Origin: a virus | Lineage: Duplodnaviria; Heunggongvirae; Uroviricota; Caudoviricetes | Virus record (IMG/VR): IMGVR_UViG_2698536392_000014 | Location: 1 to 7,970 of that record | Length of the DNA: 7,970 nucleotides | Strand: one strand, 5' to 3' | Part shown: in pieces, positions 1 through 7,970 of the stretch | How the letters are laid out: each line of letters starts with the position of its first letter | Numbering within the stretch: the stretch's first letter is position 1 | Made by a program: the position numbers and the translations under genes | Notes under the pieces: generated by a model | The model's database searches: none | Told to the model about the DNA's origin: nothing | Seen by the model: the letters and a program-made list of their open reading frames with translations, nothing else

Positions 1-378
1 CGCATGACAAAAGAGTTGACAGGTAAAACTCTGTTTATGGCGCTCAGGAGCCAGCGCCCACCTGCCGGGATAATCCACCACTCTGATCGAGGTTCACCGT
101 ACTGCGCATACGATTACCTGGTCATACAGGAGCAGTTTGGTCTGAGAACATCAATGTCGCGTAAAGGTAACTGTTACGACAACGCTCCGATGGAAAGCTT
201 CTGGGGAACGCTGAAAAATGAGAGCCTGAGCCACTATCGTTTTAATAACCGGGATGAAGCCATCTCAGTAATACGGGAATACATTGAGATTTTCTACAAT
301 CGTCAGCGTCGTCACTCTCGTCTGGGGAATATCTCCCCGGCAGCCTTCAGGGAAAAATATCATCAGATGGCTGCTTAA
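1..378 (+). CDS. IS3-family transposase OrfB (DDE integrase core), C-terminal 125 codons; 5' end outside window
   Basis: Frame is open from position 1 to TAA at 376-378. The translation (...HHSDRGSPYCAYDY...SMSRKGNCYDNAPMESFWGTLKNE...FYNRQRRHSRLGNISP...) matches, from memory, the C-terminal catalytic region of IS3-group OrfB proteins (compare IS3 InsF ...HTDRGGQYCSADY...[24 protein letters not shown]...YNRWRRHS...). Confidence 0.85.
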   Translation, partial: RMTKELTGKTLFMALRSQRPPAGIIHHSDRGSPYCAYDYLVIQEQFGLRTSMSRKGNCYDNAPMESFWGTLKNESLSHYRFNNRDEAISVIREYIEIFYNRQRRHSRLGNISPAAFREKYHQMAA

Positions 379-395
379 AAAAAGAACAAATGGTA

Positions 396-421
396 GTGTC
401 CGCTATTGCCAGTACACCTCA
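396..421. repeat. putative right terminal inverted repeat of the IS3-family element
   Basis: GTGTCCGCTATTGCCAGTACACCTCA resembles the inverse of the IS3 left end as I recall it (..CAGCAATAGTGGACAC.., terminal TGA/TCA); about 19 of 26 positions agree. The IS3 reference is recalled, not looked up. Confidence 0.4.
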
Positions 422-1482
422 AGAGTGTCAGTTGCGCTCTGATTTGTTCCTTCATCTTCAAACACGCCCTTTGTAGTCAGGTATTCAGTAATGTATTTGT
501 TCAGTGCCACAGGGTCTTTGTGAATGTCGATCGGACGTTCACGGACAAGGCCAAAAATAGTCTGGCGGTCGTAGCGAAGGGCATCAGGCTGTTTGCGCAT
601 TGATGCCGAGATACGCTTCCAGTCTTCGCGGCCGTTGTCGATAACTTCATTTTTTGCCCAGCGATGGATGCTGCCGTCAATGTTTCCGGCATCCACATCA
701 CCAGGCCAGAGAGCGTAGGCCAGTTCGTCATCCAGTGTTTTCCATGTCTGCTTGTATTCGCGATGAATGGCAGCAATGACCGGGCTGATTTTTCCTGTTG
801 AATTTTCAGTGTACTGTTGATTGGCTCTGGCGCGGGCGAGATCAACAACAGACGTGTATTTTCCGGTTTCCTTGCGTTCACCTTCGCGACGTTTTTTCCA
901 GATGCGCATTTCTGTCTGAATTTCGGGCCATTTGGCACCAGGCTTACATTTATGCTTAACCCACCCGATAGCATGCAGCTTAAGCTCCGGATACATGGCG
1001 TTAACTTCTGGCATTTTCATCAACGCTTCAACGATATGTCCGTCGAATGTTGCCATGTCTTCCTGCAACAATTCCTGCGCGCTAATCACCATATCAACGG
1101 TGATGTTTTCACATGTGTCGAACTTAACCATGACAGCGTTCTGTACTTCAGGGGCCAGCTTGTCAAAAGCGACGTTCATCGGATCTGATTCAGTCTCAAC
1201 CGGGACAAAGGAAGCAGACTCCTCATCCCAGCGGTTTTCCTGCATATATTCAGCATCCCAGGAATAGAGGGCAGGGCGGGGTATACCGGGTTTATCCTCG
1301 CAAACAAGAAATTTATAAGCGCAGTCCTGAGCAGCCGGATAATGCTCCAGGAATTGCCAGTGAAATTTTGCGCGGGCGCGACGTTCATCACCGGCTTCAA
1401 TGGCAGTGGCTACAGCGACTGCACCTTCTTCCTTTATTGCCTGTTCGTCCGGAATGGCGGCGCAAATAAAGACTTTACTCAT
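403..1482 (-). CDS. hypothetical protein, 359 aa; 3' end probably truncated or replaced by the IS insertion
   Basis: Long ORF with ATG at 1482 and a GAGG Shine-Dalgarno 9 nt upstream. Several shorter ORFs on both strands inside it look like shadow ORFs. Its last ~6 codons and TAG stop (403-421) lie inside the putative IS terminal repeat. No catalytic motif recognised by eye. Confidence 0.7.
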   Translation of the reverse strand: MSKVFICAAIPDEQAIKEEGAVAVATAIEAGDERRARAKFHWQFLEHYPAAQDCAYKFLVCEDKPGIPRPALYSWDAEYMQENRWDEESASFVPVETESDPMNVAFDKLAPEVQNAVMVKFDTCENITVDMVISAQELLQEDMATFDGHIVEALMKMPEVNAMYPELKLHAIGWVKHKCKPGAKWPEIQTEMRIWKKRREGERKETGKYTSVVDLARARANQQYTENSTGKISPVIAAIHREYKQTWKTLDDELAYALWPGDVDAGNIDGSIHRWAKNEVIDNGREDWKRISASMRKQPDALRYDRQTIFGLVRERPIDIHKDPVALNKYITEYLTTKGVFEDEGTNQSATDTLEVYWQ

Positions 1483-1761
1483 TTTGTTTTACCTCATTAC
1501 AGATTTCAGAGTGAACGAATCCCTGCCATTGCTGGCATTTTTAATCCGTTGGTATGGTGTTAATATGGCTGGAGGGTTATCCAGCCGGTGTTTCGTTATT
1601 CAGGTACAGCGATACTTTTTTTACCGGGAGGCATTCACCAGAAATTTTTTGCTCGTCTCTTGCCTGGAGGCAGGATTCTTTACTGGCATAAATTCCGGTA
1701 ATCACATTCTGTGATTCACCCGTTATAAGAAAAACCGTCATCATCAGTGCAAATGCTGAAG

Positions 1762-1950
1762 TTATTGACGTTCTCCGAAAATACCAAGTTCAAGAAGAGC
1801 AATTCGGGAAAGTATGGAATTATCATTGAGCAGATAAGGCTCATATTTCCTCATATTAATGGCATCTTCAGTAAACTCCCGGTTACTGAGCAGAACACCA
1901 ATATCAAAACAACCTTCAGACGTATTAACGTTTGGTAATAACGTTTCCAT
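1762..1950 (-). CDS. small hypothetical protein, 62 aa (METLLPNVNTSEGCFDIGV...)
   Basis: The ORF track gives 1762..2055 from a GTG; an internal ATG at 1950 is preceded by GAGGA 7 nt upstream and is the more plausible start. Same strand as neighbouring leftward genes. No family recognised. Confidence 0.4.
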   Translation of the reverse strand: METLLPNVNTSEGCFDIGVLLSNREFTEDAINMRKYEPYLLNDNSILSRIALLELGIFGERQ

Positions 1951-2055
1951 TATCGCGTCCTCAACAATGAATTTTGTGATGCGGTGCCTGGTGCCTCCAG
2001 GTGACGTTAACCAGTTAACAATTAACGCCGGATACAGAGAATCCACCCATAACAC

Positions 2056-2518
2056 TGTTTTTGGTTTTAACTGTTCCGCGTGCGCTGAGCCGCATTCACC
2101 GCATCACAAAATTCACTTTAAAAAGGGCGGCAGAGCAGCCACGGAGTAAAACTGATACCGCCAAACGTCACCAGAAAATTGATAACAGAGGGCGTTGCAG
2201 CGGGGTTGTCACTTAAGCGTATGGTCAACCTGACAACCCTGTGTCCTCAACGGGGGAAGGGATAACCCCGCCATACTTACCGCCGCGCCATTTCGCGGAT
2301 TGCCACAACCGGAAGCGCACGGTCGACGAAAATTTAACGACAGGCTATCTATGAACCAGCTACCTCGCCGTGCGCTTTCGCGTTATGGTCTGACTTTTCA
2401 GGGAAATATCCTTTCAGTAAACTGTCAGTGCCGGATGCTCACCCGTGTCCGGCGCACGCACTCCACCTCACCCGTGGAGAACTCCTTAATTACCAACCTT
2501 AGCTTCGTTGGTTAGCTA
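2056..2518. other. ORF-free, hairpin-rich region (about 460 bp) inside the leftward gene arm
   Basis: No ORF with a credible start on the minus strand (checked by hand in three frames). Contains an 11-bp stem (2201-2211 with 2231-2241), two adjacent stem-loops each carrying CTCACCCGTG (2438-2447, 2467-2476) and a 6-bp stem-loop at 2492-2512. Confidence 0.4.
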
Positions 2519-2737
2519 TTAACGCGGGTATGTAATCATTCTGGCAATGCTTAATGCCGCTGCTTTTTCCAGATTGGTGATATCCTGCTCCAGAGCGGAC
2601 AGATTTTCAGCCTGCTTAGCCCTGGCTTCATTGGCCCATTTCAGCTCCTGCGCTGCATTAATTTTCTGGTGCATCCACTCATAAAGTTCATCATCGGTAT
2701 AGTCTGGCGCGATGATGACGGGTTCTCGTTTCTGCAT
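2519..2737 (-). CDS. small hypothetical protein, 72 aa
   Basis: ATG at 2737 preceded by a consensus AAGGAG Shine-Dalgarno 5 nt upstream (reverse complement of CTCCTT at 2743-2748); TAA stop at 2519-2521. Predicted helical and charged. No family recognised. Confidence 0.55.
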   Translation of the reverse strand: MQKREPVIIAPDYTDDELYEWMHQKINAAQELKWANEARAKQAENLSALEQDITNLEKAAALSIARMITYPR

Positions 2738-2828
2738 GTCGGCTCCTTGTGGTTAGCGTTGCCTGCTTTTAACCACGTCAGGCGAGGTGGTATCCTTTGA
2801 GGGTCTGTTACTCGAGAGGAAATTGGTT

Positions 2829-3029
2829 ATGAATACAATCAAGTTTTCTTGCCCAGAATGTGGCGGCGAAGTCTTTGACACATCCTTTAAACCGCATGGC
2901 TCTGACAGTTTCGCGGGAGCCATCTGCAAAAATTGTGGTCACCTTGTAACTGAAGATGAGTCCTCGCAGTTTGATGACGAAATCGTTGACAATATCTTCG
3001 GTGCACTCACCAGAGACTTTCTGAAGTAA
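2829..3029 (+). CDS. small zinc-ribbon protein, 66 aa (CPEC-x22-CKNC)
   Basis: ATG at 2829 with GAGAGGA 8 nt upstream; two CxxC pairs with zinc-ribbon spacing; acidic C-terminal tail; no rare codons. Overlapped codon-on-codon by an antisense ORF (2808..3164), treated here as its shadow. Confidence 0.5.
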   Translation: MNTIKFSCPECGGEVFDTSFKPHGSDSFAGAICKNCGHLVTEDESSQFDDEIVDNIFGALTRDFLK

Positions 3030-3078
3030 AGGCGCATACCGCTTAGTTACCGCTCTGATAATTCTTACCTGTCCGGCA

Positions 3079-3116
3079 ATGGCGCTGATATCAATATAAA
3101 GCGCCATCGCTGTTTC
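3079..3116 (+). terminator. candidate terminator hairpin downstream of the zinc-ribbon gene
   Basis: Perfect 8-bp stem ATGGCGCT (3079-3086) with AGCGCCAT (3100-3107), 13-nt loop, followed by a T-rich tract CGCTGTTTCTTT. The long loop makes it atypical. Confidence 0.35.
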
Positions 3117-3342
3117 TTTGCTGATCCCAGGATGCCTTCCATTCTGATGTTTGACTTCGCCCACTGAGAAATCCTCTGTTTCCCCTTAACGCCGGGGTAG
3201 CGGAACAAAAAACCTGCTGCATAGTTAAACGTAATCCCCGCCGTCATGTTCATACGCCTCAGGCTGGCTACTTAACCCCTGACCACAGCCGGGTAACTCG
3301 AAGTATTGCCCTGCATTCTGTGAAGCGGGGTGGGTTGCAATG

Positions 3343-3371
3343 AATGTAAGAATATTTAGTTTTGTCGTCAA
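3343..3371 (-). promoter_or_regulatory. candidate leftward sigma70 promoter (PL-like) just downstream of the repressor gene
   Basis: On the minus strand: TTGACG (3371..3366), 17-bp spacer, TACATT (3348..3343). Would drive transcription away from the repressor 3' end into the leftward arm. Confidence 0.4.
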
Positions 3372-3372
3372 G

Positions 3373-3395
3373 TTGAATATAAATATTTTTAAGAT
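3373..3395. repeat. copy 1 of the motif TTGAATATAAAT(ATTTTTAAGAT), candidate operator or UP-like element
   Basis: First 12 bp are identical to 4102-4113; lies immediately upstream of the leftward -35. Confidence 0.45.
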
Positions 3396-3440
3396 AAAAG
3401 GCCGACAAAGCCGACCTCTGATTACAGGGCAAAGCGGGAG

Positions 3441-4085
3441 CTAGAGGCTGAACTGAACACCTTTTGCTACAGCAACGATGTTACATTCCGGTGTAAGTAA
3501 GGATGATTGATAGCGTGGGTTAAGGGGGGCTAAGTACACGAGCTTTCCATCAATAACTAATTTTTTTATAGTCATGGATGGTTCGTTTGTGAGTGGATCT
3601 GGGACTATTACTGCGACGATGCTACCATTTTTATATTTTTCGCCAGGCCTCATGATCACTGTGGCTCCAACTGGAATGCTTGGGGATCCTGATGGATTGT
3701 GCATAGTATCATCAGGCATTGAAACGGCAAAATCTCCCTCCTTGACATCAAAGAATGTGGTGATCCTGTCGACATTTCCCATAGTTTTCTCTCCTTTTAA
3801 TATTAGGAAAGAAATCGCTTCTCCCCAAGAAAGGTATGGGATTTGGGTACCTGGATTTTTCTGCACAAGGGATGATTCAGGTGATGATACTCCATACAGG
3901 AGATAGGACTCAGTAGTGCCTAGTGCTAGGGCTAATTTACTAAGAGCTTTGCTACCTGGTTCGTTTAGATCTTTCTCCCAGTATCCTATTGTTACCCCAG
4001 TTACGCCAGAAAGCTTGCCAAGTTCAACTTGGGTCAGACCTTTGTCTTTTCTGAGTTTCTTAAGCCTAATGCCAAGGCTTTCCAT
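3441..4085 (-). CDS. LexA/cI-type phage repressor (N-terminal HTH, C-terminal S24 autopeptidase domain), 214 aa
   Basis: N-terminal HTH (..KGLTQVELGKLSGVTGVTIGYWE..); C-terminal S24-like region with candidate catalytic Ser (..FAVSMPDD..) and Lys (..TIKKLVIDGKLVYLAP..); GGGAG Shine-Dalgarno 6 nt before ATG at 4085; divergent from a Cro-like gene. Confidence 0.9.
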   Translation of the reverse strand: MESLGIRLKKLRKDKGLTQVELGKLSGVTGVTIGYWEKDLNEPGSKALSKLALALGTTESYLLYGVSSPESSLVQKNPGTQIPYLSWGEAISFLILKGEKTMGNVDRITTFFDVKEGDFAVSMPDDTMHNPSGSPSIPVGATVIMRPGEKYKNGSIVAVIVPDPLTNEPSMTIKKLVIDGKLVYLAPLNPRYQSSLLTPECNIVAVAKGVQFSL

Positions 4086-4101
4086 TATTTTCTCCCGCGA
4101 A

Positions 4102-4123
4102 TTGAATATAAATTATTTTAGAT
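4102..4123. repeat. copy 2 of the motif TTGAATATAAAT(TATTTTAGAT) in the repressor/cro intergenic region
   Basis: Same 12-bp core as 3373-3384, same orientation. Its reverse complement contains a TATATT -10-like hexamer suitable for a PRM-like repressor promoter. Sits just upstream of the rightward -35. Confidence 0.45.
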
Positions 4124-4127
4124 TGTA

Positions 4128-4156
4128 TTGACCTAAAAAAAATTACCCTTTAATCT
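4128..4156 (+). promoter_or_regulatory. candidate rightward sigma70 promoter (PR-like) for the cro-like operon
   Basis: TTGACC (4128-4133), 17-bp spacer, TAATCT (4151-4156); about 30 nt upstream of the cro-like ATG, which has an AAGGGGAG Shine-Dalgarno. An imperfect inverted repeat ATTTTAG...CTAAAA spans the -35. Confidence 0.5.
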
Positions 4157-4184
4157 AAAAATACTTAGTTTTAAGGGGAGCGAA

Positions 4185-4412
4185 ATGCGAGTTGATGAAC
4201 TTGTCCAGTTTTTTGGTTCTGTCCAAAGAGTCGCTGATTTTTATGGGGTAACCCGAGAAGCTATATACATGTGGCGTAAGCGTCCCGGCGAAATAGTTCC
4301 CAAGGGGAGGGCTGCTGAAGCAGTTGCATACTCCAAGGGAAAATTATCGTTGAACCCAGAACTTTACAAAAAGAAGGATAACACCTCGAACGAAAGGAAA
4401 AATGATTCATGA
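4185..4412 (+). CDS. Cro-like HTH regulator (P22 Cro / YdaS-like), 75 aa
   Basis: Divergent from the repressor; strong Shine-Dalgarno; the HTH segment (..FGSVQRVADFYGVTREAIYMWRK..) resembles, from memory, the P22 Cro / YdaS pattern (..FGTQRAVAKALGISDAAVSQWK..). Confidence 0.8.
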   Translation: MRVDELVQFFGSVQRVADFYGVTREAIYMWRKRPGEIVPKGRAAEAVAYSKGKLSLNPELYKKKDNTSNERKNDS

Positions 4413-4705
4413 AAATCAAACATGAACACATCCGCATGGCGATGAATGCCTGGGCATATCCTGATGGTGAGAAAGTGCCTGCAGCTGAAATAGCCCGGAC
4501 TTATTTCGAACTTGGGATGACGTTCCCGGAACTGTACGACGACAGCCATCCGGAAGCCCTGGCCCGTAATACCCAGAAAATTTTCCGCTGGGTGGAGAAG
4601 GATACGCCTGATGCGGTTGAAAAAATTCAGGCGCTGTTACCGGCGATCGAAAAGGCGATGCCGCCTTTGCTGGTGGCCCGTATGCGCAGTCACAGTTCTG
4701 AATAA
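4409..4705 (+). CDS. YdaT-like / CII-analogue small regulator, 98 aa
   Basis: Start overlaps the cro-like stop (ATGA at 4409-4412), with AAAGGA 10 nt upstream. The N-terminus MKIKHEHI... matches my recollection of YdaT-family proteins that follow Cro-like genes in Rac-type prophages. The family assignment is recalled, not verified. Confidence 0.7.
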   Translation: MKIKHEHIRMAMNAWAYPDGEKVPAAEIARTYFELGMTFPELYDDSHPEALARNTQKIFRWVEKDTPDAVEKIQALLPAIEKAMPPLLVARMRSHSSE

Positions 4706-4855
4706 ATGGCTGAACTGCTGAATGATGCACATCCGGAATGGAGTTTAAGAACCTGTGAAAGACGCATTGAGCATTGGCTAAAGGTGGCAGAATTTATTTT
4801 GTACAAACCAATGGTTATGGCTTCTGGTATAGAGAAAAAAGTTATTGCTTTTTGA
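4706..4855 (+). CDS. possible small ORF, 49 aa, coupled to the preceding gene (TAAATG)
   Basis: ATG directly follows the TAA of the YdaT-like gene and ends before the intrinsic terminator; no Shine-Dalgarno of its own. Below the 60-aa cutoff of the ORF track; found by hand translation. Confidence 0.3.
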   Translation: MAELLNDAHPEWSLRTCERRIEHWLKVAEFILYKPMVMASGIEKKVIAF

Positions 4856-4933
4856 CGTAAAAACTGCTTCAATTCCGGTAAGCTTCGCAAAGCTGTACCG
4901 CGAGGCGAATAGCAGACATGGACATTTGAAAGA

Positions 4934-4955
4934 GCCCGCTTTTTGCGGGTTTTTT
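4934..4955 (+). terminator. intrinsic terminator ending the cro-like operon
   Basis: GC stem CCCGC (4935-4939) with GCGGG (4945-4949), 5-nt loop, then six T (4950-4955). Confidence 0.55.
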
Positions 4956-5077
4956 ATGACTGAAAAACGGCACGGGGCGTTAAATGCGCTGGTGGTTGCG
5001 AATACCGGTCTTTCTGCTTACTGGCTTTTTGGACAAGAATTATTGGTATGTCACGTTAACCAAAAGGGAAAAAAGAC

Positions 5078-5275
5078 ATGCTAAAACAGCAGGATATGAC
5101 AGAAACCGCCAGAGTGGTGTTTAATGAATTAAGCGTTACCGACCCGGCGACAGTCGGGGAGATTGCGCAGAATACTTACCTTTCACGCGAACGCTGCCAG
5201 TTAATACTGACCCAGCTTGTTATGGCGGGTCTGGCAGACTATCAGTTCGGTTGTTACAGACGCCTTCCGCAGTGA
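5078..5275 (+). CDS. small winged-helix-like DNA-binding protein, 65 aa; possibly a remnant N-terminal domain of an O-type replication initiator
   Basis: ATG at 5078 with AGGGA 7 nt upstream. The segment ..TVGEIAQNTYLSRERCQLILTQLVMAGL.. resembles, from memory, the lambda O N-terminal region (..LSEITKLPVKRCNEAKLELVRMNII..). Stop is embedded in a terminator. Confidence 0.5.
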   Translation: MLKQQDMTETARVVFNELSVTDPATVGEIAQNTYLSRERCQLILTQLVMAGLADYQFGCYRRLPQ

Positions 5276-5285
5276 AGGCTTTTTT
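5262..5285 (+). terminator. intrinsic terminator overlapping the stop of the 65-aa ORF
   Basis: Stem GCCTTC (5262-5267) with GAAGGC (5274-5279), 6-nt loop, then six T (5280-5285). Confidence 0.6.
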
Positions 5286-5302
5286 ATTTGTGGTAAATGG
5301 GC

Positions 5303-5333
5303 GGCTGGTGGGTGTTAGGGGCACCTACCAGCC
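5303..5333 (+). other. very stable stem-loop in the methyltransferase leader
   Basis: GGCTGGTGGGTG (5303-5314) pairs with CACCTACCAGCC (5322-5333): 12 bp including one G-U pair, 7-nt loop TTAGGGG, no following T tract. Two further hairpins follow at 5375-5393 and 5398-5416. Confidence 0.45.
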
Positions 5334-5425
5334 ATCTGCTCATGCGTTGGGTTCACAAGCAAACCTCAGGCCCACTGCTTTGCGCAAAAGCAGAATGAGC
5401 CTATCAGAGACAGGCTTAATGATCC

Positions 5426-6502
5426 ATGCTTAATACTGTAAAAATATCCAGTTGTGAGTTAATCAACGCTGATTGCCTGGAATTTATCCAGACCTTACCG
5501 GAAAACTCTGTCGATCTGATAGTCACAGACCCGCCATACTTTAAAGTGAAGCCCGAGGGCTGGGATAACCAGTGGAAGGGCGACGATGATTACCTGAAGT
5601 GGCTGGACCAGTGTCTGGTGCAGTTCTGGCGGGTGCTGAAACCTGCCGGAAGTCTTTACCTGTTCTGTGGCCATCGCCTGGCATCTGACATTGAAATCAT
5701 GATGCGTGAACGCTTCAATGTGCTGAACCATATTATCTGGGCGAAGCCGTCCGGACGCTGGAACGGGTGCAACAAGGAAAGCCTGCGGGCGTATTTTCCG
5801 GCCACAGAACGCATTCTGTTCGCGGAACATTATCAGGGGCCGTATCGTCCGAAAGATGATGGCGATGAGGCGAAGGGCAGGGCACTGAAACAGCATGTGA
5901 TGGCCCCGCTGATTTCTTACTTTCGTGATGCGCGTGCTGCTCTTGGGATAACGGCAAAACAGATTGCAGATGCCACAGGAAAGAAAAACATGGTGTCGCA
6001 CTGGTTCAGTGCCAGTCAGTGGCAGCTACCGAACGAAAGCGATTATCTGAAATTACAGTCGCTGTTTGCCCGGGTGGCAGAAGAGAAACATCAGCGGGGA
6101 GAACTGGAAAAGTCCCATTACCAACTGGTCAGCACATACAGTGAGCTGAACCGGCAGTATATGGAACTGCTGAGTGAATATAAGCATCTGCGGCGGTATT
6201 TCGGTGTGACGGTGCAGGTGCCGTACACCGATGTGTGGACGCATAAACCGGTGCAGTACTATCCAGGGAAACATCCGTGCGAAAAACCGGCAGAAATGCT
6301 GCGGCAGATAATCTGCGCGAGCAGTCGTCCGGGTGACCTGGTGGCGGATTTTTTCATGGGTTCTGGCTCAACCATAAAAGCAGCTATGGAGCTCGGGCGT
6401 CGTGCAACTGGTGTTGAACTGGAGGCAGAACGTTTTGCGCAGACCGTTAAGGAGATTAGTCACATCCTTACATGCTCAATTGATGACGGGAAGGATGGAT
6501 AA
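5426..6502 (+). CDS. DNA methyltransferase, beta-class amino-MTase (N6-adenine or N4-cytosine), 358 aa, apparently orphan
   Basis: Motif IV DPPY near the N-terminus (..VDLIVTDPPYF..) and AdoMet motif I near the C-terminus (..DLVADFFMGSGSTIKAA..); order IV-I defines the beta class, with a central target-recognition region containing an HTH-like stretch. No restriction endonuclease gene adjacent. ATG at 5426 has no obvious Shine-Dalgarno. Confidence 0.9.
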   Translation: MLNTVKISSCELINADCLEFIQTLPENSVDLIVTDPPYFKVKPEGWDNQWKGDDDYLKWLDQCLVQFWRVLKPAGSLYLFCGHRLASDIEIMMRERFNVLNHIIWAKPSGRWNGCNKESLRAYFPATERILFAEHYQGPYRPKDDGDEAKGRALKQHVMAPLISYFRDARAALGITAKQIADATGKKNMVSHWFSASQWQLPNESDYLKLQSLFARVAEEKHQRGELEKSHYQLVSTYSELNRQYMELLSEYKHLRRYFGVTVQVPYTDVWTHKPVQYYPGKHPCEKPAEMLRQIICASSRPGDLVADFFMGSGSTIKAAMELGRRATGVELEAERFAQTVKEISHILTCSIDDGKDG

Positions 6503-6613
6503 AGATATGGTCAGTTCAGGCTGTGAAGCAAGTAGACAGATAAGGCTGCAATAAAAACTGACAATAGTAAAATAGCTTTTTCCCAGGTAGTCATGAATAC
6601 GATCTCTTAAAGC

Positions 6614-6633
6614 GCCCGCTGATACCAGCGGGC
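6614..6633. other. GC-rich hairpin downstream of the methyltransferase gene
   Basis: Perfect 8-bp stem GCCCGCTG with CAGCGGGC and loop ATAC. Only a short T run on the minus-strand side and none on the plus side, so a weak terminator at best. Confidence 0.3.
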
Positions 6634-7271
6634 AATACATACTGGCATTAATGTTAAGTTCAGGGATAATTCATCGTATTTTGTGGTACGACGCTATCAA
6701 TATTAATAAACAGTATTTTTCATGTAAAATTTCTGTTTTTTGATCTGATTCTCGTTTCCTGGGTTATGATGTTGTTGTGAACCATGCTGTTGAATGATAA
6801 TGTTCGGGTATAAAATTGTTGCTGATATGTAGCGCAGTGAGCAGGTGGTATTTCTGTTGCTGAGTGTACGGATACAGTGCTTCCCTCCCTCAGCGGGGGG
6901 GCAGGTGTGCTGTGGTTTTAGAGACACCGGAAACGAGAATGATGCGGGTTTGCTGGTGCCGGGATAGAGTCGCCGGAGGTCATGACATAGAGCAAAAAAG
7001 GAATGTGCATGCAAATACACACCTCTTCGGAGATCTCTTCTTTATATGGATGAGCCTCAAGGTCAATAGTTTATCTGTTATGTATTCATATGTTGTTACT
7101 TATATAATCCATACGGGCATATCATCAGTACACACATACTATTATGGCATTTTATTTTTGTTTTAACTGAATTCCCGGGGCACTCTTTTTGATTTCTGAT
7201 AAGGAACCAGAATTTTCTGTTAAATGGTGTCACGTTGTAAATGGTTAATGGAAGCAGCTTATTATCCATAA

Positions 7272-7295
7272 TCACACCTGAGTTAACAGGTGTGA
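7272..7295. promoter_or_regulatory. perfect 9-bp inverted repeat TCACACCTG-AGTTAA-CAGGTGTGA, candidate binding site for a dimeric regulator
   Basis: Exact palindrome arms with a 6-bp spacer, inside an ORF-poor AT-rich region about 430 bp upstream of the next gene start. Confidence 0.35.
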
Positions 7296-7722
7296 GAATA
7301 CTTCCGGGTGGCAGGAACACATCTGACTGATACCAGATTATCAACTTTATTTTACACCATACAGTTGAAAACGTTATTCCGCTTGATGGGCATATCACTG
7401 TGTCAATAACTATCCATTCCATCTTTTAACCTTCTCGGTACACATTGCTTTCGATTGTTTTGCTAAAAATCATAGTCAATAAATCAGTGTAACTCATTGA
7501 AAAAGATCGTCTTCTTTGTCTTCCTGGGGTTTTCTTTTCTAATTTTGTATCACTTTGGTTCAAGTTGTTTCATTTTTTTGTAATACAAATTAGCAGGATG
7601 AGCGGGAATATAAAAAAATCGGATGTTTTTGTAATGGATATTATTTTTTGTAAAATAATGTATTTTTATTTAAATCTCTATCAGAAAAGAATTTATTGTT
7701 CCTTTATATGGTGGAAAAGGTC

Positions 7723-7970
7723 ATGGTATTTAAACACTACGATGTGGTCAGGGCGGCGTCGCCGTCAGATCTTGCGGAAAAGCTGACACAAAAACTGAAG
7801 GAGGGGTGGCAGCCATTTGGCAGCCCGGTGGCCATCACGCCTTATACTCTGATGCAGGCCATTGCTGCGGAAGGTGATGTCACCCCACCTGTGTTGGTGA
7901 AGCCGTCGGATGGAGAAGGCACAGTAATCAGCGCCACCAGAGACCCGGAGTATTACTTTGTTGTGGTTCT
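7723..7970 (+). CDS. hypothetical protein, 5' partial (first 82 codons; continues beyond window)
   Basis: Not in the ORF track because no stop is reached. ATG at 7723 (alternative in-frame ATG at 7708) preceded by AAAGG; translation MVFKHYDVVRAASPSDLAEKLTQKLKEGWQPFGSPVAITPYTLMQAIAAEGDV... is open to the window end, with a clear shift to higher GC and typical codon usage after the AT-rich spacer. Confidence 0.5.
   Translation, partial: MVFKHYDVVRAASPSDLAEKLTQKLKEGWQPFGSPVAITPYTLMQAIAAEGDVTPPVLVKPSDGEGTVISATRDPEYYFVVV

Follow-up and report, generated by a model that had tools for sequence, protein, structure and literature searches.

The question raised by this locus is whether the AT-rich DNA that follows a phage methyltransferase gene is empty. 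The window analysed in this study, the whole 7,970-nt stretch of viral DNA, carries a phage N6/N4 DNA methyltransferase gene of the late operon at 5426–6502 on the plus strand (PF01555, E = 1.9e-42; RefSeq "DNA-methyltransferase"). The 5' end of a sialate O-acetylesterase-type gene with a DUF1737 N-terminus lies at 7723–7970 on the same strand (PF08410, E = 5e-17). The esterase gene is a pseudogene in the strain, where RefSeq gives it as "DUF6645 domain-containing protein, internal stop". A preliminary description had reported an AT-rich shift past the methyltransferase, long A/T runs and a return of coding sequence with higher GC at 7723. All three were confirmed. The GC content of 6503–7722 was 0.370, compared with 0.476 for 1–6502 and 0.514 for the methylase gene, and runs of at least six A/T were about 1.8 times as dense as upstream. 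GC fell to 0.243 at 7571–7722; the DUF1737 ORF begins at 7723, and GC rises to 0.544 in 7723–7970.

The same description had found no credible ORF between the two genes, which proved to be incorrect. An intact gene of 108 aa is located at 7096–7422 on the minus strand. It starts with ATG, has the length of its homologues, and contains neither a frameshift nor a stop. Its product matched the NCBIfam IraM profile NF007393 over nearly the full length, residues 1–107 on profile positions 1–110 of 114, with 144.2 bits against a curated cutoff of 121. The solved IraM structure, PDB 8twd, matched the protein with E = 2e-29, and residues 1–77 aligned without gaps to its chain A, consistent at the sequence level with a PmrD-like beta-barrel core. 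The protein was 55% identical to K-12 IraM (E = 3e-46), 61% to CFT073 IraL and 84% to the STEC299 copy. Among 10 diverse homologues 37 columns were invariant, including four Cys and the C-terminal CPYG, and all of the database homologues that bear a name (26 of 26) are called IraM. The gene is an intact member of the IraM/IraL (RssC) family, in sequence and in synteny. The identities place its product, a predicted RssB anti-adaptor, as a third sub-lineage beside IraM and IraL.

The contrary reading denies the region any coding function: it would be a regulatory spacer silenced by H-NS, or a junk spacer, in which the 108-aa ORF is a chance frame or a dead copy. The GC content of the ORF with its flanks is indeed low (0.36), and the host prophage has undergone extensive decay: its Q is truncated, IS600 copies are present and the esterase gene is a pseudogene. 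The Pfam scan of the 108-aa protein also gave no match at E ≤ 0.1, whereas precomputed database annotation gives PF11183 for all homologues. This reading is nevertheless very improbable, given the full-length match above the curated IraM cutoff, the match to the solved structure, the undamaged frame of normal length, the invariant columns and a good Shine-Dalgarno sequence. Moreover, 29 genomes retain iraM with ≥99% identity, in contrast to the decay of its neighbours. The preliminary description had named an intact protein in homologous regions as an observation that would refute it, and an intact iraM-family gene was indeed found on the reverse strand here and in all relatives examined. With iraM counted, the gene-free DNA is reduced to 6503–7095 (593 nt) and 7423–7722 (300 nt), and the unusual non-coding length that had been claimed disappears. 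For genome scanning, this is a case of a small reverse-strand gene taken for empty DNA, in a region whose length is then ordinary. The other short ORFs (6703–7020, minus; 6864–7166, plus; 7426–7563, minus; 7565–7786, plus) had no Pfam or NCBIfam match. A 54-aa hydrophobic ORF at 6476–6640 on the minus strand was considered as a small toxin and rejected, as its substitutions by codon position (5/2/5 and 15/13/9) were not of a coding type. Its end was not conserved, and it was broken in SHP24.

The genomic context was obtained from NZ_CP013029.1 (E. coli 2012C-4227), to which the window was 100% identical and in which it lies within a degraded lambdoid prophage. RefSeq annotates iraM there exactly at 7096–7422 on the minus strand, flanked by methylase, esterase, holin and lysozyme genes. 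The annotated order is Q stump, methylase, the 6503–7722 region, esterase, holin, lysozyme and an Rz-type lysis gene. With Q/PR' and the methylase on one side and esterase-holin-lysozyme on the other, 6503–7722 represents the "moron" or cargo slot in the late operon of a defective lambdoid E. coli prophage. Co-linearity with Stx phages was judged from the annotated contexts of eight loci (L001, L003, L004, L005, L006, L007, L026 and L027). The order in Stx2a phage EH2201 is Q, methylase, three tRNAs, stx2AB, STnc100, iraM (minus strand) and esterase; in STEC299 it is methylase, three tRNAs, STnc100, iraM (minus strand) and esterase. In the CFT073 potB prophage, IraL lies between the tRNAs and DUF1737/holin. 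The flanks are thus those of the Stx/EHEC phage slot (e.g., EH2201, Sakai Sp5 and Sp10), and the cargo is of the same kind: tRNAs, STnc100 and a small antisense gene. The differences are that Stx phages carry stx2AB and tRNAs in the slot, while neither is present here; that Sakai Sp5 and Sp10 have AsxR or AgvB where iraM stands here; and that the STnc100 copy is decayed and Q truncated in this prophage. Conservation of the locus at ≥96% was seen in 29 complete genomes; most are STEC and EPEC, with O111, O121 and O103 strains among them.

The Q antiterminator was cut to 49 aa by a deletion of about 7 kb. With Q truncated, the prophage's own Q gives no strong late transcription that would run against the cargo gene. 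The low GC of the slot stems from horizontally acquired moron DNA. An earlier suggestion was that the AT-rich stretch marks a genomic island or prophage boundary. Apart from the abrupt GC change at both ends, the findings speak against it: the stretch is flanked left and right by late genes of the phage, and holin, lysozyme and Rz-type genes follow downstream; sequenced Stx phages have the same internal order; and neither an integrase nor att-like direct repeats adjoin the slot. The region is internal to the prophage, and the boundary reading, hardly credible on any count, is already refuted by annotation and synteny. It is highly probable that the region as a whole is a lambdoid moron slot with an intact reverse-strand iraM-family gene and otherwise typical non-coding phage DNA. 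The gene had been missed but was already annotated, and its phage context is well known; the only possibly new item is a hairpin block discussed below.

To IraM, the protein is homologous over its full length. The residues through which IraM contacts RssB have been listed as Clusters I–III (bioRxiv 10.1101/2023.01.07.523045). All five Cluster I contacts (I4, I6, W22, K26 and I42) were kept in the 108-aa protein. Cluster II reads S13, S14, F18 and W30 here and T13, C14, F18 and W30 in IraM, and Cluster III reads I61, Y62, N63 and V64, with positions 63–64 as in IraL. In total, 9 of 13 contact residues were identical and the other 4 were conservative substitutions (T13S, C14S, H63N and I64V). 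H63N and I64V are common to IraL; as a counterpoint, the two Cluster II differences from IraM, T13S and C14S, fall on contact residues. By homology, the product is predicted to bind RssB and stabilise RpoS. It would bind the adaptor RssB and keep it from handing the stress sigma factor RpoS over to ClpXP; the RpoS level in the lysogen would thereby rise. We infer that iraM is expressed in the lysogen. The identity to the two characterised members is only 55–61%, and those two themselves differ in RssB binding: IraM and IraL bind RssB differently from each other (PMC4045071).

The gene was compared with both characterised members. IraL (formerly YcgW) of uropathogenic E. coli CFT073, which has been characterised experimentally (PMC4045071), belongs to the same family and length class. 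It lies in the same lambdoid slot and orientation, after Q/tRNAs and before DUF1737/esterase and lysis genes. IraL has a C-terminal QQSP extension that the protein here lacks, and position 14 is S here but C in both IraL and IraM. The iraL promoter is ≥96% conserved among iraL strains (PMC4045071), whereas upstream similarity was confined here to the most distant part, around the start of DUF1737; with 61% protein identity, the gene is not IraL in the strict sense. K-12 IraM (b1160; structure 8twd) is a PhoP-induced RssB anti-adaptor of Mg2+ starvation. Its Cluster I residues as well as F18, W30, I61, Y62 and P66 are conserved here. The context of K-12 iraM differs: it lies between icdC and ycgX, just past the point where the annotation of the e14 cryptic prophage ends, and the DNA flanking it is unrelated to the flanks here. 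With no PhoP box above chance and no similarity to the K-12 flanks, the gene is not IraM of the K-12 type either.

IraM/IraL-type RssB anti-adaptors are thus recurrent cargo of a slot that also carries Shiga toxin genes. At least three sequence sub-lineages with unrelated promoters are indicated, and K-12 IraM itself is located elsewhere. The results suggested that temperate phages repeatedly give their E. coli hosts, O111, O121, O103 and other STEC/EPEC lineages among them, differently wired switches of RpoS stability.

The likely control signals of iraM lie on the minus strand. A Shine-Dalgarno sequence, GAGAAGG, lies at 7430–7436, 7 nt before the ATG, and is conserved in STEC299. A putative promoter at 7469–7510 was assigned by alignment with STEC299, with the −10 hexamer TATGAT at 7474–7469 and a weak −35 hexamer ATGAGT at 7497–7492. 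A 21-nt block, 7510–7490, was invariant between this prophage and STEC299 and overlaps the putative −35, and 7423–7570 falls within a 78%-identical alignment to STEC299 L005 (window 7022–7570). A probable intrinsic terminator of iraM was placed at 6994–7022, where GGUGUGUAU-UUGC-AUGCACAUUCC is followed by UUUUUU. The hairpin and its U-tract were present in the minimum-free-energy folds; a simple terminator scan gave no call at this position. The gene, running opposite to the late operon, would then be equipped with a promoter and a ribosome-binding site of its own and a probable terminator.

The promoter region of iraM had no detectable similarity to that of K-12 iraM or CFT073 iraL. A PhoP box upstream of iraM was tried as a candidate and rejected: 28 pattern matches were found in the window against 23.8 expected, not above chance, and none lay on the iraM strand upstream of the gene. 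K-12 iraM is reportedly regulated by H-NS (Battesti et al. 2012, J Bacteriol 194:2470, cited in PMC4428439), and by analogy silencing by H-NS of the iraM promoter region here, with a GC content of 24–32%, is plausible. In the preliminary description H-NS silencing had been proposed for the downstream gene, which begins at 7723; its target would be iraM instead. The spacer at 7571–7722 (24% GC), which separates the esterase gene from the control region of iraM, is absent from STEC299, and similarity to the esterase upstream regions of other phages begins only at about 7686–7720.

On the other side of iraM, a decayed sRNA gene of the STnc100/PasD type was detected at about 6885–7048 on the plus strand. 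STnc100/PasD RNAs are prophage sRNAs (bioRxiv 10.64898/2026.05.13.724894). An nhmmer profile built from five STnc100 copies matched with 9.2 bits and E = 0.0018, covering profile positions 42–181 of 195, so that the residual similarity extends over about 140 of the 195 positions. These statistics are weak, and the assignment is made together with position: the strand and location match those of intact STnc100 in relatives, and about 45 nt separate the end of the relic from the stop codon of iraM. Within it, 6992–7032 matched the 3' part of Sakai Sp10 STnc100 with 83% identity (E = 1e-5). In the alignment both the core helix (CCGGG/CCCGG) and the stem of the terminator were disrupted. Folding z-scores were +0.05 and −0.75, so that the relic was no more stable than shuffled sequence, compared with −2.1 to −4.3 for intact copies. 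Rfam gave no match to STnc100 (RF02076) at E ≤ 10, and 6885–7048 is classed as a relic rather than a family member. An STnc100/PasD-type gene normally ends beside the 3' end of iraM, as in relatives, and the copy here has decayed.

The tRNA array of the relatives is also lost. In most of them the array is preceded by a 255-nt non-coding cassette, here at 6503–6757 and referred to as Module A. It was 82–84% identical to STEC299 L005 4001–4263, 79% to E. ruysiae L025 1090–1353 and, from 6593 onward, 76% to SHP24. The right border was 6757 against STEC299 and E. ruysiae, and 6763 against SHP24. A consensus scan found a promoter-like site at 6703–6730 on the plus strand (TTAATA, 16-nt spacer, TAAAAT), pointing to where relatives have the array, with both hexamers largely conserved in STEC299, SHP24 and E. 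ruysiae. The prophage-lineage-specific spacer at 6758–6884 replaces about 970 nt of STEC299, including three tRNA genes, and ARAGORN found no tRNA genes or remnants in 6503–7095. The preliminary suggestion of a decayed pseudogene was therefore right as to decay, in the STnc100-type relic and the lost array, and wrong if a protein gene was meant.

The spacer 6758–6884 could not be assigned to a feature: no similarity was found beyond the 29–42 E. coli genomes with the locus, and no Rfam match. For 6758–7021, plasmids and sequenced phages gave no match that would indicate an origin. RNA structure in 6740–7040 was not unusually stable (z = −0.8 on the plus strand and −1.2 on the minus strand). 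A GU-rich run at about 6766–6780 was considered as a GcvB mimic or anti-GcvB and rejected, as it had no promoter, terminator or conservation outside the lineage. The search for known RNA families in 6450–7800 at E ≤ 10 gave only noise, namely a Trp leader at 16.9 bits and a CRISPR-DR on the hairpin of Module A.

That hairpin belongs to a near-invariant block at 6606–6667 on the minus strand, with the 8-bp stem-loop GCCCGCUG-GUAU-CAGCGGGC. The body of the block was 96% invariant over four lineages, compared with 51% and 29% for the flanks. The preliminary description had mentioned small RNAs for this region. The moron slot downstream of PR' is indeed a known home of phage small RNAs (PMC4104026), and the block is the one weak candidate found. 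It may be a gene for a small AsxR/AgvB-type anti-sRNA of about 55–60 nt, an Hfq-binding sponge with its own promoter, back-to-back with that of the tRNA array, whose single-stranded 5' part would titrate a host sRNA; this reading is rather doubtful. The putative promoter, from a consensus scan, is at 6673–6700 on the minus strand, with the −35 TTGATA at 6700–6695, a 16-nt spacer and the −10 TACGAT at 6678–6673, and would start a transcript near 6667. The −10 was conserved in three of four lineages, and the −35 was not conserved.

Several observations favour an anti-sRNA. The motifs CAGUAU, AUUGCCCG, the hairpin, CGGGC and UUU occur in the same order as in the published RNAs (PMC4104026 supplement). 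A covariance model of AsxR/AgvB/EcOnc03 matched 6610–6656 on the minus strand with 15.0 bits and E = 0.006, a single outlier in the window, where the next match had 7.5 bits. In a multi-locus covariance search the block was among the top three matches, with L005 and L006. Its score is at least that of the SHP24 relative in the canonical position (13.8 bits), itself unreported by Rfam at E ≤ 0.1. Folding predicts a layout like that of AgvB (z = −2.4), in which a single-stranded 5' region precedes a small hairpin and a GC-rich hairpin closes the RNA. The pattern of conservation, with the −10 and the body kept but the 5' end and loop variable, suits a small transcription unit. Like AsxR (RF02703), AgvB (RF02702) and EcOnc03 (PMC4104026), the block is antisense to the late operon in the same slot. 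AsxR and AgvB are short transcripts of 51–60 nt with a variable 5' seed and a conserved 3' terminator hairpin; the predicted layout and orientation of the block agree with this, but its U-tract is short.

Other features do not fit this family. Rfam AsxR and AgvB gave no match at E ≤ 10 in 6450–7800, with gathering scores of 63 and 56 bits; true members score 68–96 bits, and the Sakai genes 88 and 96 bits with the same models. The block differs from the published RNAs in a 6-nt deletion in the conserved CUCAUGC segment, in its stem sequence and in a U-tract of just 3–4 nt. The position is also different. Canonical anti-sRNAs are convergent with STnc100 and directly upstream of the esterase gene, where iraM stands here, and in Sakai the two 3' ends lie within 1–2 nt of each other. 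The block precedes the tRNA position and is separated from the downstream STnc100 relic by about 230 nt. No sequences bridging it and AsxR/AgvB were found among the examined loci. A scan of viral, genome and metagenome collections for the hairpin found only four lineages. The stem was invariant in all of them, so that covariation neither supports nor refutes the structure.

The chances are about even that the block is not a gene. It may be a "linker" at a mosaic joint that recent recombination among lambdoid prophages has kept identical. Alternatively, the hairpin may work within longer transcripts, where it would stabilise the 3' end of the methylase mRNA, serve as a processing signal before the tRNA array, or halt antisense read-through coming from iraM. 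The same right border of Module A, 6757, in STEC299 and E. ruysiae is consistent with a linker, and in E. ruysiae Module A has no adjacent methylase, as expected of a recombining cassette. The hairpin lies 110 nt past the methylase stop; its stem is invariant without covariation, and the weak U-tract is less in keeping with a strong terminator than with a stabiliser or pause site. However, a stabiliser hairpin alone leaves 27 invariant nt on one side of the stem and the −10-like hexamer unexplained, and recent recombination should have homogenised the flanks too, only 29–51% of which are invariant.

A broader version of the anti-sRNA reading takes the whole of Module A as a self-contained mobile regulatory cassette, with back-to-back promoters for the tRNA array and a new anti-sRNA. 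Its product would be an Hfq-type RNA of about 55–60 nt, running from 6667 to 6608 on the minus strand, a distant relative of AsxR/AgvB whose conserved candidate seed AACUUAACAUUAAUGCC would titrate a host sRNA. Such a cassette is unlikely. If true, the slot, with the adjoining IraM-type anti-adaptor, would reprogram host stress regulation at the levels of RNA and protein turnover. If the hairpin block is transcribed, it would be one more phage anti-sRNA candidate.

The GC content was 0.370 in 6503–7722, compared with 0.476 in 1–6502 and 0.514 in the DNA methylase gene on its left (5426–6502, plus strand; PF01555, E = 1.9e-42). The minimum, 0.243, was found at 7571–7722, and GC was 0.544 from 7723, where a DUF1737 domain begins (E = 5e-17). 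The AT-rich shift after the methylase and the restart of coding at 7723 with higher GC, both noted in the preliminary description, were confirmed. The same description found no credible ORF in this stretch, but a 108-aa ORF with an ATG start lies at 7096–7422 on the minus strand and is present in the mechanical ORF list. The region is truly AT-rich in composition and contains an overlooked reverse-strand gene that is annotated already. It is the moron slot well known from lambdoid prophages of EHEC type, the cargo stretch between the methylase and sialate-esterase genes of the late operon. The novelty is modest: the anti-adaptor gene belongs to a third IraM/IraL sub-lineage with a putative promoter of its own, the phage small RNA STnc100 is present as a decayed copy, and a conserved hairpin cassette might be distantly related to anti-sRNAs.

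The ORF at 7096–7422 is iraM in RefSeq and matched the NCBIfam model NF007393 ("anti-adapter protein IraM") over the full profile with 144.2 bits against a cutoff of 121. A Shine-Dalgarno sequence, GAGAAGG, is located 7 nt ahead of the ATG, and the gene is intact and looks functional. The protein was 55% identical to K-12 IraM (E = 3e-46) and matched crystallised IraM (8twd) at E = 2e-29. The RssB contact residues of IraM fall in three clusters (bioRxiv 10.1101/2023.01.07.523045). All Cluster I residues of K-12 IraM (I4, I6, W22, K26, and I42) are kept in the window protein. Cluster II reads S13, S14, F18, and W30, compared with T13, C14, F18, and W30 in K-12 IraM; Cluster III reads I61, Y62, N63, and V64, compared with I61, Y62, H63, and I64, and N63 and V64 are shared with IraL. 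By homology to IraM/IraL (PMC4045071, PMC3877760), the protein is predicted to bind RssB, and RssB bound in this way would not hand the stress sigma factor RpoS to ClpXP.

The alignment of ten diverse IraM/IraL homologues had 37 invariant columns, including four cysteines and the CPYG of the C-terminal tail. C81, C92, C97, C102, and CPYG (residues 81–105; 7096–7180, minus strand) were unchanged in all ten. The arrangement of the cysteines resembles a small metal-binding knuckle. In the solved structure of IraM the tail had been truncated; it was called less conserved and flexible (bioRxiv 10.1101/2023.01.07.523045). The window protein was 84% identical to the copy in E. coli STEC299, 82% to database cluster P0002, 63% to the Stx2a-phage copy, and 61% to IraL; these identities place it in a third IraM/IraL sub-lineage.

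The DNA upstream of the window iraM had nothing detectable in common with the iraL and K-12 iraM promoters, and the search for a PhoP box for iraM gave none above chance. In the alignment with STEC299, a −10 element (TATGAT or TATACT, 7474–7469) is conserved, as is a weak −35 element 17 nt upstream of it; a 21-nt block spanning this −35 (7510–7490) is invariant. These elements suggest a promoter that may be activator-dependent. A predicted hairpin followed by U6 at 7022–6994 (minus strand) is plausible as the iraM terminator.

Positions 6400–7970 matched E. coli 2012C-4227 (NZ_CP013029.1) at 100% identity, and 29 complete genomes, mostly STEC/EPEC including O111, O121, and O103 strains, carry the whole stretch at ≥96% identity. 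The RefSeq order in NZ_CP013029.1 is IS600, truncated exonuclease, dicB, ydfC, LexA-like repressor, Cro/CI, ydaT fragment, DUF1133 fragment, small hypothetical gene, DNA methyltransferase, iraM (minus strand; window 7096–7422), DUF6645/SASA esterase pseudogene, DUF1378, DUF826, holin, lysozyme, intervening genes, and lysis protein. This order places the locus in the interior of a degraded lambdoid prophage and not at an island or prophage boundary, one of the options named in the preliminary description. The esterase (DUF1737 N-terminus, SASA/DUF6645; window 7723 onward; L001 9324–11261) is an internal-stop pseudogene in the window's strain, but some near-identical genomes have it annotated as intact.

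DUF1133 is an antiterminator of the Q type (PF06530, 33 bits against a cutoff of 26). The related IMG/VR locus L011 encodes it intact, with 188 aa, whereas the window keeps only its last 49 aa behind the ydaT fragment (4706–4855, within 4701–4855 on the plus strand). A deletion of ~7 kb joins the two fragments; L011 has that DNA (DUF968, RusA, and others). The late operon cannot be antiterminated by the prophage's own Q, yet the reverse-oriented iraM is intact, a pattern that fits the retention of cargo beneficial to the host. The Q stump is followed by a strong terminator-like hairpin at 4882–4955 (plus strand), GCCCGCTTTTTGCGGG then T6, with a weak isrK-like Rfam match (19.8 bits, E = 0.75); the element may correspond to the short PR'-tR' transcript of the window's phage type.

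The slot that carries iraM here is also the one that houses the Shiga toxin genes. Stx2a phage EH2201 carries, in this order, Q, a small ORF, the methylase, three tRNAs, stx2A, stx2B, STnc100 (plus), iraM (minus), esterase, and holin; STEC299 has Q, the methylase, tRNA-Thr/Arg/Gly, STnc100 (plus), iraM (minus), and esterase. IraL of CFT073, the anti-adaptor characterised by Hryckowian et al. (PMC4045071), is placed in the potB prophage between a tRNA-Ile/Arg/Arg array and DUF1737/holin/lysozyme. Since these positions agree, iraM/iraL-type genes are recurrent reverse-oriented morons downstream of the Q-dependent late promoter. In phage vB_EcoS-640R1, three tandem STnc100-like copies (3198–3391, 3427–3602, and 3667–3855; 138, 30, and 132 bits) separate the tRNA from the iraL-type gene; amplification of STnc100-type genes inside the slot can thus occur.

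The 593 nt between methylase and iraM consist of three pieces by comparison with relatives. Module A (6503–6757) was 82–84% identical to STEC299, 79% to an Escherichia ruysiae genome, and 76% to SHP24 (from 6593), with its right border at 6757 against the first two and 6763 against SHP24. It precedes a tRNA array in STEC299 and SHP24 and occurs without methylase or tRNAs in E. ruysiae. ARAGORN found no tRNA genes in the window; 264 nt have replaced what in STEC299 is a stretch of about 970 nt with three tRNA genes. The second piece (6758–6884) was found only in the window's lineage.

The third piece (6885–7048, plus strand) aligns with STnc100; in every relative this gene is on the plus strand, and its end is about 45 nt away from the stop codon of iraM. 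A profile made from five STnc100 copies matched 6885–7032 (plus strand; E = 0.0018; profile positions 42–181 of 195), and the 3' part of STnc100 from Sakai Sp10 was 83% identical to 6992–7032 (E = 1e-5). Both the CCGGG/CCCGG helix and the stem of the terminator are broken, the Rfam scan gave no match here even at E ≤ 10, and the folding z-scores (+0.05 and −0.75) were no better than shuffles, compared with −2.1 to −4.3 in six intact copies. On these grounds we conclude that the piece is a decayed STnc100 copy. IMG/VR contigs L016 and L020, two viral contigs with this locus, lack 53 nt at its 5' edge (6848–6900), which is further evidence for decay; their DNA upstream of 6481 differs from the window. 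In NZ_CP027435.1 (strain 2014C-3599, O121-type), IS600 is inserted between the relic and iraM at about 7040, leaving the locus in two pieces. A second, better preserved STnc100-type sequence of the same prophage lies in the immunity-region context at 1918–2127 (minus strand; 37.7 bits, below the gathering score of 47; nhmmer E = 2e-5), directly against a full-length DicF sRNA gene (2125–2176, minus strand; 75 bits, E = 1e-15) that adjoins dicB/ydfC.

Within module A, a run of ~50 nt is near-invariant over four lineages (body 96%, hairpin 90%, flanks 51% and 29%), and the hairpin varies at loop positions only. The minus-strand sequence of this block is AACUUAACAUUAAUGCCAGUAUGUAUUGCCCGCUGGUAUCAGCGGGCGCUUUAAG. 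A 54-aa ORF overlapping it was rejected as not coding. AsxR, AgvB, and EcOnc03 are 51–60 nt anti-sRNAs that run antisense to the late operon in the slot; their 5' ends vary, and their 3' part is conserved (AGUAUCUCAUGCnnUUGCCCGAACCCAnUCGGGC-UUUU) (Tree et al., PMC4104026). With a covariance model built from these three published RNAs, the block was the sole outlier of the window (6610–6656, minus strand; 15.0 bits, E = 0.006; runner-up 7.5 bits), and the three best matches of a multi-locus search were all copies of the block, those of STEC299, of SHP24, and of the record to which the window belongs. Transcription from a promoter-like site (TTGATA, 16-nt spacer, TACGAT; 6700–6673, minus strand) would give an RNA of about 59 nt, whose predicted fold has the AgvB layout. 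However, the Rfam AgvB and AsxR models, which gave the Sakai genes 96 and 88 bits, found nothing at the block at E ≤ 10; the U-tract is only 3–4 nt, the −35 is not conserved, the position differs from the canonical one, and no collection gave stem covariation. For these reasons, a small RNA gene of AsxR/AgvB type is an unlikely candidate here, and the likelier reading is a recombination linker, or else a hairpin with a role in longer transcripts. SHP24 has a divergent AsxR/AgvB-like element in the canonical position (5093–5150, minus strand; 3' end 4 nt from the STnc100 end), which scored 13.8 bits with the covariance model of the three published RNAs and was likewise absent from the Rfam scan of that locus (E ≤ 0.1). 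The Rfam models probably cover only part of the anti-sRNA family.
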